From assembly GCA_046563655.1 (NCBI GenBank), contig CM102283.1, positions 8,494,001-8,558,000 on the forward strand: 64,000 nt of DNA, written 5' to 3'. Numbering within the stretch: position 1 is the first letter of the stretch; every line of letters starts with the position of its first letter. The position numbers and the translations under genes are program-made. Positions 19,901 to 46,235 of the stretch are shown here, piece after piece. The DNA is from Yuukianura sp. NJ FZ-2021 (lineage: Eukaryota). The notes beneath the pieces were generated by a model that saw only the letters and a list, made by a program, of their open reading frames with translations, did not search any database and was not told where the DNA came from.

Positions 19901-22900
19901 ACAATCGTAAGTCACAATCAAACATTTAAAAAGTGAATTTTTATGATGGTCACTGCCTGTTTTGTGGGATTTCAAATTTTGCCGCCGCCACTGACGTCAG
20001 CAAAATTCGAAAATCCCCAAGAGCAAGACGGCGGCGATGTCACTTTGTGTGCCAAAATTCCCTAGAGTGGCGCTTTCACTTTTTTGCAAAAACCAAAACT
20101 GCCTCGGGCCAAAAATAATGAAATTATAAACTTATCACCAGTTTCTTTACTTTTACATGTTAGGTTAACATAACTTTTCAAAAAATTTCAAATTTTTGAA
20201 ATTTCGAGCCAAATTTTAAGACGAGGAGAGTTATAGTCTGATGGTTTCGAGTTACTTTAATTGGGCAAAACTCTAAAGATAGTTTAAATATAAAATTTCA
20301 ACTTCCGACTTTTGTCATGCAGTGCGACAAACCAAGAAATTTTAGAAGAGTTACGCCAATTTTCAAAGAAAAAAATTGTTACGCATGCGCCAACTCGTTT
20401 TTTTTTTGTGCTTTCAGCAACTACGCAGGTCCTCATACTTGTATCACCTACGACGCTGTTAACAACGCTTACATTCAAGCCCGGAAGTACATCCGTAAGT
20501 ATACACAACAACATTTTGTGTAACAATTACTATGTACACTAGTGTACAAAATGTACAAGATGAATCAAAACATGTAATTTGGCCCTACTTTATACCAATT
20601 TTGTGCAAATTTGTATTTTTGTAAGGTGTGGTGGAACGGAGAGAGCGTTATTCCCATGAAGAACTGGCTACAGTTGGAGAACTTGTGCTTGAAGTATCAA
20701 GAGTATTGGCAAGGACGTAAGCAAAACAACACACAAATTTCGAAAAGTTAAAATTTTGAAACATTTGAAATTTTCAAAATTTCAGGTACGGTTTGTCCGT
20801 TGATGAAATCGAACACGGATTGCCACTTATCGACACTTCTAAAACTCTCGTCCGTGAAATTTGTCCCGCCTTTTTGTCCAACGTGCACTGCCAACCCGGG
20901 AAATACCGTCGGTACGACGGTCTCTGTAACAATCTCAAGCATCCAACATGGGGCGCCGTCCAATCATCTTTCGCGCGTCTTTTGAAACCAGTTTATGCCG
21001 ATTCCATCTCCGATCCACGCGTGGGCCACTTAGGCTCAACCTTGCCACCGCCCCGAATTGTGTCCAGAACAATCCATCCAGACGAAGGTTACCACGACCA
21101 TGCTGCCACTATATTACTGATTTCTTGGGGTCAATTTATGGATCACGACTTGACCTTAACTGCAACTCCACTTGACCCTATCACTCGTAATGAAGTGGAA
21201 GAGTGTTGTCATAGGGCACCCAATGCCAAGAATCCATATTGCATGGAAATCTCCATTCCACATGACGATCCATTTTATGGAGTTTATGGCGTGAGATGTA
21301 TTGACTTTGTGAGGGGATTTCCGGGAACGAGAGCTGGATGTCGCCTGGGATCCAGAAATCAGTTTAACATTCTCACGGCCATTATAGATGGAAATACGGT
21401 GTACGGAGTAGAGGAAAACTTTGCACGGAGTCTGCGCTCTGGCTATGGAGGACTTCTGCGCATGAATCCAGTGTTTGCACAGTATGGATTGCATGACCTC
21501 CTGCCATTGAAACTGGACATTCCGGATGAAGGATGCTCAAGACCGAACAGAAGCATGTACTGCTTCGATGCTGGAGAAATTCGGGTCAATGAACAACTTG
21601 TTTTGACCTGCATGCATACCCTGATGGCTCGAGAACATAACAGAGTTGCACACAAATTGGGCGAAGTCAATCCACACTGGGATGACGAAACTACTTACCA
21701 GGTAATTACGAACTTACCATTACGAACTTACCGCTAATTACTCTAATTACTTTGGTTTTACATGAATTACCAAAAATGCTTGCGAAATTACGGCGAAGTA
21801 TGGGAATGCCAAAAACAAAATACAAAATCAGGAGAATTACTTTTAGGATTTGAAGGAATTAGCCAAATTGCCGAAGGTATTTCAAAAGTATTTCGTAATT
21901 ACTGTAATTACAGGAAGCTAGACGAGTAGTAATTGCTGAAATTCAGCACATTACTTACAATGAATTCCTGCCTCTGGTGCTTGGTAAAGAAGTGATGGCT
22001 AAATTCGGACTTTTGCTGCAAAAAGAAGGCTACTGGGATGGATACGATCCGAATGTCAATCCGGGCGTTTTGGCCTCATTCTCTGCAGCGGCTTTTAGAT
22101 TCGGACATTCCCTCCTTCCTACCAACGTTGAAAGATGGTCCAAAGCACATAAGTTCATCGGTAATTGAAATTTTTTGAAAATTTTTATTTCAAAACCACA
22201 ATTCTCTGGCAAAATTTTGATTTTTGAATCTGAATCTTTTGAAAACAGCCTCCAGAAGATTGCGTGACCTGATTCGACAACCGTTTGACCTGTACAGAGC
22301 TGGTGTAATTGACGAATACTTCATGGGCATGTCAAATCAAGTGGCACAAGCTATGGACGACTCTGTCACTCAAGAGGTACTTCACAGAGAAAAAACATTT
22401 TTTGTTTCGTAATTTCAAAATTTTGAAATTCAAAAACTGTGTTTTTGTAGGTAACGAATCACCTGTTTAGAAAACCTGGACAGCCATTTGGTGTAGATTT
22501 GGCGGCTTTTAACATGGCACGAGGACGTGAATTCGGACTTCCATCGTACATGGAGTACAGGTACTATAACCAGAACTTTTTAGTTGCACATTTTTAAATA
22601 ACATAATTCCAAATTTGAAAACGTTAAGAATTTAGTAGAAAAATCACTCTTTTTAAATAACATAATTCCAAATTCCAAAACGTTAAAAATTTAGGGAATA
22701 CAAACAAGAGCTATTGATAATTAGTATATTATAAAATAATAAATTATTAAATAATTTATTTTAATCAGGAAATACTGTGGTTTGCCCGGTGCTGAGGGAT
22801 GGGACGACCTGTTTGGCTCCATGAACAACATTACAGTGAAACGCTACTCCCAGATCTACGTCCATCCTCAGGACATTGACCTCTGGTCAGGCGGTGTCTC

Positions 22901-40426: not shown

Positions 40427-41932
40427 TCAGTTGACAGGAGCTTTAGACTTGGCGGGTTTCGGGTTGACAGGATCAAGCGGTTTTGTTACATCAAGTTGAC
40501 TTTGTTCCGGGATTGCCGGAGTCTCACCCTCTTCAGGTACTGTACTTTGCTGATGACGGTGACGATGACGATGCTCACCGTCTCCATGATGACGATGATG
40601 ATGATGACGATGCCCTTGGTCCGCCTCTTCTGCCGCAATGGCATTCTGCTTCCGTGCATTCCGAACGGCATAGAAGATGAAACATGCTGCTACGAGTGGA
40701 GCCGCGACGGTCGCCAGAGCAGCAAAGAACATAAAGCCAATTGCAGCTCTGTGCATGGCTCGAGCCTCAGCTGAGTTCTGGATCCGTTCGGGCGACATTT
40801 TGAAGAAGTCCTTGGCTCCGCCCTTCCAGCAAGCATAGAGCCCATGCTCAAAGTCAAAAGTTCTGTTGCCTATTTTGACGACATGGTTGGACTTTACATG
40901 GTTGACTGGCTCTTTAGGACGAACTGGTGGTGGTCCTTTTGTAGTAACGACTGGTTCTGGTGTAGTCATGTTGGGGTTGGATAATGTCCAATTGTTTGTG
41001 TTTGGGCTGTCTTTAGTATAATACTCGTTGGTTGCTGTAACGTAGGCTTTGTACTGAACGACGTAGCGACACAAGTCGTCGGGATCTTCTGCACTCGGAT
41101 CTGAGCGCATGAAGAACGGAAGAACGAAAGCGATAAAGGCAAAGATGAACGCCAGAATCAAAAAGGCGGCGGAAAACCGAGGATTCCTCAAGAAAATCTG
41201 AAAGAAAATATTCTTTGTTTCAAAATTTCTGTAAAGCGACTAATTTTCTAGTCTTTGATTATAATTTTCTAATTTGCGATTGGTTGTGATCTGCTAAGCT
41301 CTTGTGATTGGTTATATTTTGATTTGCTTTCATTTTGTGGTTTGTGATTGCATCATTGCATGTGCTTTGATTTTGTGTTTTGTGATTGGTTAGATTTTTA
41401 GTTTTGATTTCGTGGCTTGTGATTGGTTGTGCTTTGATTTTCTGATTTGTGATTGGTTGTACTCTGACTTTGTTGTTTGTGATTGGTTACTTTTTGAATC
41501 TCTGGCCTGTGATTGGTTAATTTTTTTGAACTTACGCTAGCAGCTCCTGCTACGAGGAAAAGTGCAGCAATGATTCCGCAGTCTCCGGCAGCTCTGAGCA
41601 AGTTGTTGTCCTGGCAGTACTTGGATTGCTCATACTTTTCTTTCTCGTTTGGCTTAAACTGGGACTCATGGGCAGTACTTTCAGTAGAACAAGTACCCTG
41701 GTCATCTGTGTAGTGAGCATAGGGTGGAGAGTACTTGACAAGCAGCCCAATTGAACCTCCTAGTAGCCCCAGGGCTAGGACCTGCAGCATTCAAGCCAAA
41801 AAAGTTAGGTCAAAGGTCAGCTAAAGGTCAAAGGTCATGACAGTTCTTTGGAATGCTTCGCTTTTTTTCTTGTTAGAGACTTACTATTAAGGAAACCATA
41901 AGAAAAATGGCAATGACTTTTACTAGCCCCAT
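40427..41932 (-). CDS. Four-TM membrane protein (claudin-like topology) with His-rich C-terminal tail, 3 exons
   Basis: MGLVKVIAIFLMVSLI|VLALGLLGG (TM1), Cys-containing loop, TM2 GIIAALFLVAGAAS|IFL, TM3 FSAAFLILAFIFAFIAFVLPFF, long loop, TM4 AAIGFMFFAALATVAAPLVAACFIF, tail HRHHHHRHH. Confidence 0.7.
41270..41522. repeat. Intronic degenerate minisatellite, about 30-bp unit
   Basis: Recurring ttgtgattggtt(g/a) core, about 8 copies. Confidence 0.8.
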
Positions 41933-42998
41933 GATGTAAGCCTCCAGCCTACGTTGATCTGAACACTTTTTTTTGAAAAATGCCAAACTGTATGAAAATG
42001 TTCCACTTTTTTTAAAAAAGAAGAAGCATTTATTTTGGTATTTTTTTTATTTTGATTTATTTTAACTACTAAATTTTGGAATCCATCACTATGACAAAGT
42101 ATTTTCAAAATTCAAGCCTTTCCTTTTCTCTAAAATCTGTGCATAATGTGGCATATATTTGTGTTTGAAGTTTTGTGGGAAAAAGTGTAGAAGTTCCAAA
42201 AAGCAACTTTCTTCGCATTCATTTTTCAGGATAGTATTGAAAAGTCTTGCAAAAAAAAAACGTTCAAAAAGGTTTGTGTGAATTTTACTTTATTGCGACT
42301 TCCACTTCTTGTTGACTTGATTTTATTTTCAAAAGTGTATGGAGTAAATATTAGTCAAGGTTAGTTTATGTACTGTTTGGGTAAAAACACAATAGTACGT
42401 CACATGTAACCGGAATTTACAAAAAGGTGTTGTAAGTTTCAATTGCACACACGCAAACCTCCGTGCAAAAACTTTCAATTTCAAGTTTTGTAACGATGAC
42501 TTTTTGTAGTTTGTAAAAAAATGCAAAAAAGTGGAAATTTTTAGTCTATTGTTTCTGGACTTCAACGCAGTTTACTGGTTTAGTTTGAAATAAAAGCAGT
42601 TTTTTCCGTTCCGGGTGTTGTAAGTTTTATGGTGTACATATAATATATATTAATATAATAATATATTAATATATTATTTAAATTATTATATTTCGTTCTT
42701 CAAGTTTTTTTCAGCTGAATTGAAACGGGCAGACTAAAAAATGTCAATTTTTTAAGTTTATGAAGCGGAATTAAGTTGCAACGGAATATTTCATCACGAG
42801 TTTAAAACTGTATTAAAAATTTACGTGTTTTACCCGCCTCAGAGGTTGCTCAAATGGAAATCAATATCGGAAAGCATTTGGCCCGGTTCTGAATTCAGAA
42901 AAAGTTGACACAGTTTCCCCAAAAGACAAAAGCAAAAACTCAGCACTTTTTTGGAAAGCAAAAGAATCAGTTCACATTTTGAATTTTTAAACTTCCAT

Positions 42999-43975
42999 AT
43001 GATTCTGGTTACGACAAAACGTTTGGTTACTATTAAAAAAGGAACCAACAAAAACACAGCCACGGCTGCAAAAATTGCTAAAATTGTCGTCCGAAAAGTT
43101 CCTAATCGGCAGGTAAGCGAGAAGTTGTCAATCATAATACTAAGATTTTTTTTTCAAAATTTGAAATTTGAAATTTTTGAAGTTTTTCAGAAAATTTAAA
43201 AATTTTCGTAATTTTACTTTTGTGTTAAATATTAGCCTGCAAAGATGGAGGAGTTTTGGACCCAAAAAACTGCCGTGATCATTTTCTTCCGACGCTTCGG
43301 ATGACTATTTTGTAAAACCGAACTTTTTCGCCTTTTTTTTTGCCTAGCATTTTGTAAATGTCTGACACTGACCCAAAGTAATCTGCTTAAAAATTTTAGA
43401 ATTTTCAAAAAAATTATATATTTTTTTTTCTGGCTTATAGGTAGGCAAGCGGCGATGGAGATCAGTCTTCTGCTGCCCTTGCTTGAAGCCAATGATATTC
43501 GACTGATCGGAATCGGATTGGAAGACATCGGGGTTGCTGATTTTTTGAAAGGAGAATTTTTTAGCGGTGAATTGTACGTAGATTCAAAAAAATCTTCCTA
43601 TGCTGCACTTGGATTCAGAAGATTCAACATTTGCACTCTCATCATGTCTATGTTTACAAGGTCAACTTGGACAGCCATAGCGAAGGTTAGTTTCTATCTA
43701 AAAACTCATGTCAAAGTTGAATTTGACCTTTGACCTCATGTGACCTTTGACCTTTGACCTTACAGGGAAGAGAACAGCATACACGTAGTGACGTCAGAGG
43801 AGACGCACTGCAAAATGGCGGGCTTTTGATAGTGAAAAAAGGAGGACAAGAAATTTTACTTTCGTACAGACAACAAAATCCTGCCGATCATGTTCCGAAT
43901 GAAGAAATTTTGAAAGCTCTTGGAATTAATACTCCGAATTCAGAAAATCCCGATTTTCAAAATCAAAAGTCATAA
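42999..43975 (+). CDS. PRXL2B: Selenocysteine-containing PRXL2B/FAM213B (SelenoU3; prostamide/prostaglandin F synthase family, thioredoxin-like fold); exons 42999-43112, 43236-43311, 43441-43685, about 43765-43975
   Basis: FWTQKTAVIIFFRRFG-TGA(43302-43304)-LF|CRQAA...IRLIGIGLEDIGVADFLKGEFFSGELYVD...GDALQNGGLLIVKKGG...QQNPADHV aligns with FAM213B RRFGCxxCR; SECIS downstream. Confidence 0.92.
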
Positions 43976-44029
43976 GTTCAAAATTTCAAAAAACAAAAAC
44001 ACTTTTCTTCTTTGTAAGGTTGTGTGACG

Positions 44030-44096
44030 TCATCCCATGATTTCACTTCTGAAAATTGTTTGGAATACAACCGGAAGTGAATGATTTCTTGGATGA
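44030..44096 (+). promoter_or_regulatory. Eukaryotic type II SECIS element
   Basis: Helix I TCATCC/GGATGA; core ATGA (44037)...TGAT (44082); helix II TTCACTTCTG/CGGAAGTGAA; unpaired AAA at 44052; apical mini-stem TTGT/ACAA. Confidence 0.92.
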
Positions 44097-44374
44097 TTTC
44101 AATCATTTTGTCGTCCATTGTTAAAGTTTGACCTTTGACCTGAACAGGTCAGTTTTTCTTAAACTTTTGATGTATGACTTTTAGAAAAAATTAAAAATGT
44201 GTAAAATATTTTTTATTGAAATTTGACTTAATAATTTCATTTTCATTCAAATTTGATGTCGTCTGTTGAACACTGTATTTAGTTTAGTTTGAGTTGCGTA
44301 AAATTGTAGTTGAGTTTTGTTTAGCTGAAAGTGCCATTGAGATGCTGTAGACTAGTTGCGTCGACGCAGTTGTG

Positions 44375-44909
44375 TTACTTCCGAAGTGCGTAGCCGTAAG
44401 ATGGAGCTGCGTAGTGGTGGGAGTAAGCTCCAGCAATATTATGGATTCCACCGTGGTTGAGGAATGGAACAGCGTTGGGCAGAATCGCTGCATGGCCAGT
44501 AGCTCCCAGTACTTCCGAAGCACTCAATCCAGAGCTGTAGATTGTGTTGAGCTACAAAAATATCAAAAATAATTTTTACAAAAAAAATCCTCCAAATTTT
44601 CAAAATTTTGGTTTTTGGATTTACTGGAGTAATGAATGGATCAGCGACGGCTACTGGAGCAGCTATTGGAGCAGCAGCATAAGCAAGTGGAGCTGCGTGA
44701 AGCAAATTTCCAGCTTGGGTTCCAGCGACCAACATAGCAAAAATGATGAGCTAAAAAGTCAAAACAAAAAATTATTAAATATTTTCAAAATTTTGATTCA
44801 AAACGGAAATTTCAGTTTTTTCCATAGTTCAGTGTTGCTGTCAGTTTCAGTTTTAAAAACTGAAATTTTTGATATTTTTGAAACTTTTTGTATGACTTAC
44901 GGTATTCAT
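44375..44909 (-). CDS. Small secreted Ala/Pro/His-rich cuticular-type protein, 3 exons
   Basis: MNT|LIIFAMLVAGTQAGNLLHAAPLAYAAAPIAAPVAVADPFITP|LNTIYSS...HYAAPSYGYALRK*; AAP motifs; TATAAATA at 44997-45004 on the minus strand. Confidence 0.8.
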
Positions 44910-45726: not shown

Positions 45727-46235
45727 ATGAACACTGTAAGTAAAAATTAGGAGAGTTGATACTTCCTAATTAGAATTTGCACATTCAATCAACTTTTTCA
45801 ATTTTCACATTTCAAAATTTCATATTTTTTCATAATTTCATTTTTCAGCTCTTTGTTTTCGCTCTCTTGGTCGCCGGCACCCAAGCTGGAAATCTGTATC
45901 ACGCAGCCCCAGCAGTTGCCTACGCTGCTACTCCAGTCGCCGTCGCCTCACCGGTTCTTACTGCCGTATGAAACTCAAAATTTTGAAACTTTTTTAAAGA
46001 AACTTTCAAATTTTCAAAATTTTGTCTTTTTTTTGTAGACTTATCCTGCCTACTCAGTCCATAGTCCAATTGCCCACCATGTTGACAGCACCTATGCTGC
46101 CCCAGCTCCAGCAGTCCTTGCAGCGCAGTCTATGCCGCTCCAGCCGTCGTTAAGACGCATCATGTCGCAGCAGCACCCGTCTATGCTGGAGCAATTGGAT
46201 ACGGTTCCTATGGAGGACTTGCTTTCAGAAAGTAA
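45727..46235 (+). CDS. Paralogous cuticular-type protein with an apparent frameshift near 46125
   Basis: MNT|LFVFALLVAGTQAGNLYHAAPAVAYAATP|TYPAYS...APAVLA, continuing as AVYAAPAVVKTHHVAAAPVYAGAIGYGSYGGLAFRK* only after a frame change; TATAAAA at 45611. Confidence 0.75.

Follow-up and report, generated by a model that had tools for sequence, protein, structure and literature searches.

The window analysed here is a 64-kb stretch of DNA. On its plus strand lies a gene of four coding exons and three GT-AG introns, whose exons join into 645 nt encoding 214 residues with a single internal stop, a TGA at codon 61. Downstream of the terminal TAA is a hairpin with the shape of a type II SECIS element. 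The features of the locus are as follows:

42999..43112, plus strand: coding exon 1, 38 codons, with the ATG at 42999
43113..43235, plus strand: intron 1, 123 nt, phase 0, GTAAGC...TTAG, with stops in all frames
43236..43311, plus strand: coding exon 2, containing Arg57-Arg58-Phe-Gly-Sec61 (putative)-Leu-Phe and the first base of the Cys64 codon
43302..43304, plus strand: in-frame TGA, codon 61, putative selenocysteine, aligned to the catalytic Cys44 of human PGFS
43312..43440, plus strand: intron 2, 129 nt, phase 1, splitting the resolving Cys codon
43441..43685, plus strand: coding exon 3, thioredoxin-fold core, Pfam AhpC-TSA_2
43686..43765, plus strand: intron 3, 80 nt, phase 0, at a position apparently common to the related proteins P0005 and P0006
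43766..43975, plus strand: coding exon 4, holding Pro184 (human Pro167), with the TAA at 43973-43975
44029..44097, plus strand: type II SECIS-shaped hairpin, 61 nt 3′ of the TAA
44190..44195, plus strand: candidate poly(A) signal ATTAAA, the first AATAAA/ATTAAA hexamer 3′ of the stop, downstream of the hairpin
41808-41837, 43724-43759 and 44129-44140: clusters of TGACCTTTGACC

Gene anatomy and protein family

An earlier note on this DNA had placed the TGA at the first Cys of an RRFG-CxxC-R motif, with the resolving Cys codon split by an intron (t|gt), the downstream exons intact and a downstream ATG at 43455 that follows the active site. The gene model bears this out: the motif reads RRFG-TGA-L-F-C-R, the Cys64 codon is divided T|GT by intron 2 (43311 | 43441-2), no other stop interrupts the 214-residue frame, and the ATG at 43455 lies beyond the active site. 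The spliced protein is collinear with its relatives (e.g. P0279, with 50% identity across 181 aligned residues). The model is least secure at the translation start, because conservation begins near residue 23, with the final ~15 residues of exon 1 matching relatives, and exon 1 has no in-frame ATG further down; a weak initiator-like TCAGTT is present at 42967. The first ~20 residues (42999-43060) form a basic extension, rich in Lys, Arg and Thr and free of acidic residues, and the protein has about 20 more N-terminal residues than human PRXL2B. This extension could be mitochondrial targeting, and several relatives are also extended N-terminally.

Exon 3 alone scored 41.9 bits against Pfam AhpC-TSA_2 (cut-off 27), and the best and only significant matches among solved structures were to human PGFS (PDB 9us9 and 9usa; exons 2-3, E 2e-16; exon 4, E 6e-12). 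In this alignment the TGA falls on human Cys44, and the equivalents of Arg40, Arg41, Cys47 and Pro167 are kept as Arg57, Arg58, Cys64 and Pro184; these are given as key residues of human PGFS in the passages of PMC12938796 cited here. Those family matches bearing a function name were prostamide/prostaglandin F synthase or peroxiredoxin-like 2, and in the SelU3 tree the protein grouped with Folsomia, crustacean, mollusc and Ovis members. It is very probably SelenoU3/PRXL2B (FAM213B), the U3 assignment resting on best matches since named SelU1 (PRXL2A) and SelU2 (PRXL2C) were absent from the tree. ESM Atlas returned generic AhpC/TSA clusters only, and single-sequence structure prediction of the Folsomia protein gave a pLDDT of 34. 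Membership in NCBIfam NF040769, the bacterial SelL-related redox protein, was rejected, as the exon pieces (26-28 bits) and the Folsomia protein (69 bits) scored under the 120-bit cut-off; it is a distant relative that shares the thioredoxin fold and a UxxC/CxxC centre.

Judging by two of the relatives' proteins, intron 2 was probably gained within this lineage. At its site, a gap of exactly 43 residues is found in five clade relatives (P0278, P0286, P0279, P0012 and P0005). P0005 and P0006, which are apparent genomic read-throughs, cross the site unbroken, as would be expected if the intron had been gained in this lineage, and enter an intron at the intron 3 position; the part of P0006 that aligns does not differ from Folsomia. 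An unspliced reading of the intron 2 region also yields TGT (Cys), so UxxC would outlast intron 2 retention. The intron opens with GTA, as does the next exon, and sits 7 nt after the putative Sec codon, again with the look of a recent gain. Copies of it elsewhere in the 64-kb window were limited to AT-rich matches.

No tRNA genes were found in the 64-kb window. Six of the seven exact TGACCTTTGACC copies in the window lie within 2.4 kb around the SelU3 gene (upstream, in intron 3 and just past the SECIS-like hairpin), and with one mismatch at most there were 11 matches against 0.38 expected. We take the sequence to resemble a nuclear-receptor direct repeat; alternatively, it resembles a short interspersed motif. 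Upstream, at 41403-41518 and 40427-41790 (minus strand), are a divergent gene that gave a weak claudin/SUR7-like hint (E 0.03-0.09) and a 30-nt tandem repeat of ~4 copies that is GATTGGTT-rich. Two short Ala/Pro-rich, secreted-looking genes, presumably cuticle-protein-like, lie at 44284-44750 (minus strand) and 45774-46235 (plus strand), the former converging on the SelU3 3′ end.

The SECIS-like hairpin and the codon in related loci

The hairpin lies at the distance of about 60 nt past the TAA that the earlier note had given, and each of the SECIS hallmarks listed there could be located. Helix I comprises 7 bp (44029-35/44091-97), and the core consists of A-UGAU at 44037-41 on the 5′ side and UGAU at 44082-85 on the 3′ side. 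Helix II has 10 bp without defect (44042-51/44072-81; nine Watson-Crick pairs and one G-U), and above it are an unpaired AAAA (44052-55) and a 4-bp mini-stem (44056-59/44067-70). Published SECIS rules, as set out in the passages of PMC3753652 cited here, describe a UGAN/KGAW core, helix II and unpaired adenines; the hairpin fits them, with UGAU/UGAU falling within UGAN/KGAW. Its folding z was -2.76, and equal stability was reached in 4 of 200 shuffles. A SECIS descriptor, built from the published rules but after the hairpin had been seen, matched only once across both strands of the 64-kb window, at the hairpin itself and thus on the strand of the gene. In 40 block-wise dinucleotide shuffles of the window there was one match as good (mean 0.025 per window; 0.2 at a looser cut-off). 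A looser earlier descriptor also gave one weak minus-strand match of -2.5 kcal/mol.

Rfam SECIS_1 (RF00031) gave no match to the hairpin at E ≤ 10 in two scans, its 35-bit cut-off not being reached. Among 20 related loci listed, only two scored with this model, at 27.5 and 26.1 bits against the gathering cut-off of 35; the model is insensitive on these loci, yet the miss in the window still counts against the hairpin. A covariance model built from the hairpins of three relatives, with a poor alignment, also missed the window hairpin (0/9 matches at E ≤ 10); since it missed the two Rfam-scored loci, L002 and L006, as well, this result carries no weight.

The state of the codon in relatives, TGA versus TGY, had been proposed as a check and was read from a metagenome scan that yielded at least 22 related loci, 21 of those listed covering the motif. 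At the position of the TGA, 20 of these 21 have TGA, six of them (L014-L019) being near-duplicates, and one has TGC (L001). Among the loci listed, only the TGC locus falls in the springtail-like clade described below, and none of the 20 TGA loci does. The bases that follow the TGA among the relatives listed are GCC, CAG, GTA, ATG, GGC, CCG, CCA and CCC. A SECIS-like hairpin was present in 7 of the 22 loci listed (L002, L006, L008, L009, L011, L021 and L022), a count limited by the many other listed loci that stop before the 3′ end. By pattern, none was found at the TGC locus, nor in L003, L004, L005 and L010, four TGA loci that have 3′ sequence and whose frame is unbroken. Downstream of the SelU3 relative in L022, two similar SECIS-like hairpins stand in tandem (2265-2307 and 2507-2551).

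Sec and Cys forms in a springtail-like clade

A peroxidase exon in the window (20769-21737) shares 90% identity with Orchesella dallaii and 60-74% with named insects and crustaceans, and the SelU3 protein groups with Folsomia and Allacma in one clade (97/92). From these two genes we infer a springtail affinity for the window; the unnamed members of the clade are termed springtail-like from tree position alone. In one of the trees the clade comprises 32 library proteins (33 minus the long-branch P0112). Five of these have W at the motif position and 15 have C, seven of the latter belonging to the sciarid-fly group; in the other 12 the motif is missing, as their models start after it or skip it. 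W in the protein library served as a proxy for TGA: three of three W proteins with matching DNA had TGA, and the one C protein with matching DNA had TGC. The nearest relative, P0005 (67% identical), has Cys, as read from the protein only, its DNA lying outside the 22 loci listed; Folsomia candida also has Cys.

Sec- and Cys-type copies are interleaved in the springtail-like clade, a modest new point. Uniting the Sec-type proteins in one clade was rejected with p-AU 3e-60, the group having been named after seeing the tree and the motif column masked. The interleaving suggests that the Sec/Cys state changed repeatedly. Repeated Sec-to-Cys change would be the simplest reading, since Sec is widespread outside the clade; paralogy is also possible. 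Most likely, Sec is ancestral and was retained here, with several replacements by Cys among close relatives. The Cys form recurs in arthropods, being found in Folsomia, sciarid flies, other insects, Nephila and Ixodes.

Among the Cys forms, those of the sciarid flies Bradysia and Pseudolycoriella (P0281, P0284 and P0282) are nested with the Folsomia group (98/96) and stand apart from the mayfly, cricket and butterfly copies. The tree would suggest horizontal transfer of SelU3 from springtails to sciarid flies, which we treat as a lead only because insect monophyly of SelU3 was not rejected (p-AU 0.123). The public models of P0354 (Allacma fusca), P0316, P0321, P0324 and P0343 skip the motif or begin after it, the pattern expected of unannotated Sec codons.

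Functional reading, alternatives and significance

We consider it very likely that a springtail-like hexapod carries here a functional selenoprotein gene, SelenoU3 of the PRXL2B/FAM213B type, with splicing, recoding and chemistry as predicted from an anatomy, family, codon position and hairpin that are observed directly. The earlier note's proposal of a Sec-encoding UGA in a PRXL2B/SelenoU3 gene is upheld by the intact frame, by human PGFS as the best structure match and by the TGA in 20 of the 21 loci listed. It had also expected standard annotation to truncate such a gene, as is indeed the case for the Daphnia, Homarus and Penaeus proteins, which start at a Met just after the Sec site, and for an Allacma model, which skips the motif.

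From established eukaryotic Sec decoding, the 3′UTR SECIS would recruit SBP2 and eEFSec/Sec-tRNA after splicing, and UGA61 would be decoded as selenocysteine. The product would be a thioredoxin-fold enzyme of 214 residues whose centre is Sec-Leu-Phe-Cys. By analogy with Arg40/Arg41 and Cys44 of the human enzyme, the Sec61 selenolate, aided by the two adjacent arginines, may attack a peroxide or endoperoxide; Cys64 would then resolve it to a selenenylsulfide, by analogy with the Cys44/Cys47 pair of human PGFS, and a thioredoxin/NADPH system would re-reduce this, again by that analogy. The family half of the note's "prostaglandin F synthase-family oxidoreductase" stands, and synthase activity may be attributed to the window protein by family only. 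General lipid-peroxide reduction seems at least as likely a role as dedicated prostaglandin F synthesis.

A pseudogene or sequencing error, i.e. a Cys-form gene with a nonsense change or base-call error at the catalytic Cys and a hairpin that is chance or relic, is very improbable. In its favour, Cys is found in the nearest relative, P0005, and in Folsomia, and a single substitution would turn TGY into TGA. Against it stand 214 codons without further lesion, three intact introns, a SECIS pattern without defects that lies exactly 61 nt past the stop and was equalled once in 40 shuffled windows, and TGA at the same codon in nearly all of the related loci listed. UGA followed by CUA is a leaky readthrough context, and the window has TGA-CTA, which would allow low-level, selenium-free insertion of Cys, Trp or Arg. 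We rate such readthrough lower still: the bases 3′ of the TGA differ among the relatives listed, so the readthrough context is not the conserved feature, readthrough has no need of a SECIS, and the TGA sits at the catalytic position.

Equally remote is a main product in which the active site is bypassed or altered, either by starting at the ATG at 43455, without the active site, or by retaining intron 2, which would yield a UxxC protein of 257 residues, 43 of them a hydrophobic insert. The length of intron 2 is divisible by three and its frame free of stops, as in 4% of 20,000 shuffles, and the database models of crustacean relatives begin after the Sec position. However, exons 1-2 are conserved at the protein level, exactly these 43 residues are absent in the five relatives, intron 2 has a T-rich tract and AG, and short models in databases are an artefact to be expected from annotation.

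Sec-containing SelU3 is already known from other invertebrates, and the springtail gene adds a member, not a new system. In the passages cited, Jiang et al. 2012 (PMC3473315) report eight SelU3 proteins in seven invertebrates, three of them Cys-form and all of those from deuterostomes; the taxa given there are sponge, placozoan, cnidarian, mollusc, annelid and amphioxus, with no hexapod, and the Sec-to-Cys change is placed near the deuterostome root. The window gene resembles these Sec-SelU3 genes in its prostamide/PGF synthase-like subfamily, in Sec replacing the first Cys and in an AUGA_AA-type SECIS in the 3′UTR, whereas the recurrence of Cys forms among arthropods differs from the picture of a change near that root. 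For the centipede Strigamia maritima, Table S26 of Chipman et al. 2014 (PMC4244043) and the passages cited give 20 selenoproteins including SelU, and argue that selenoprotein losses are insect-specific. Its SelU is likewise a Sec-containing SelU with a SECIS in a terrestrial non-insect arthropod, but Strigamia is a myriapod rather than a hexapod, and its SelU is given in those passages without a U1/U2/U3 subfamily. Human PRXL2B/FAM213B (PDB 9us9 and 9usa; PMC12938796, passages cited) shares the collinear thioredoxin fold, RRFG-x-x-x-C and the Arg40/Arg41/Pro167 equivalents, and differs in having Cys44 for Sec and no SECIS; PGH2 activity is described there for the mammalian enzyme only. Among vertebrates, Sec is found only in SELENOU1, according to the part of PMC13134290 cited.

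The surprise that the earlier note drew from the tiny Drosophila-type selenoproteomes loses its force. That comparison is inapplicable because the peroxidase exon matches Orchesella dallaii at 90% identity and insects at no more than 74%; moreover, Sec-SelU3 is published for invertebrates (PMC3473315, passages cited), and non-insect arthropods have large selenoproteomes including SelU (PMC4244043, passages cited). A springtail genome paper gives six tRNA-SeC and four SECIS predictions in the part cited (PMC5644144), and the main text of PMC5330540, as far as cited, makes no mention of Collembola. No springtail selenoproteome or hexapod Sec-SelU3 was found in the literature searched, which covered few subscription papers; a 2016 book chapter on insect Sec extinctions and the figure supplements of PMC5330540 and PMC13134290 may cover the topic.

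This SelU3 gene reveals no new mechanism. Its value lies in correcting a model that automated annotation would truncate ahead of the active site, and in adding a data point from non-insect hexapods, which fill a gap between crustaceans and myriapods, rich in selenoproteins, and insects, which are poor in them. On balance, we lean towards the view that springtails keep a crustacean-like selenoproteome, that this is the first hexapod Sec-SelU3 found, and that Sec and Cys flipped several times in Collembola. If true, this would place the selenoproteome collapse later than the Collembola split and supply natural Sec/Cys pairs of closely related enzymes (67% identical) for testing the benefit of selenium in a soil animal. 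With Sec and Cys forms interleaved among close relatives, the trade-off between the two could be tested on enzymes that are nearly identical.
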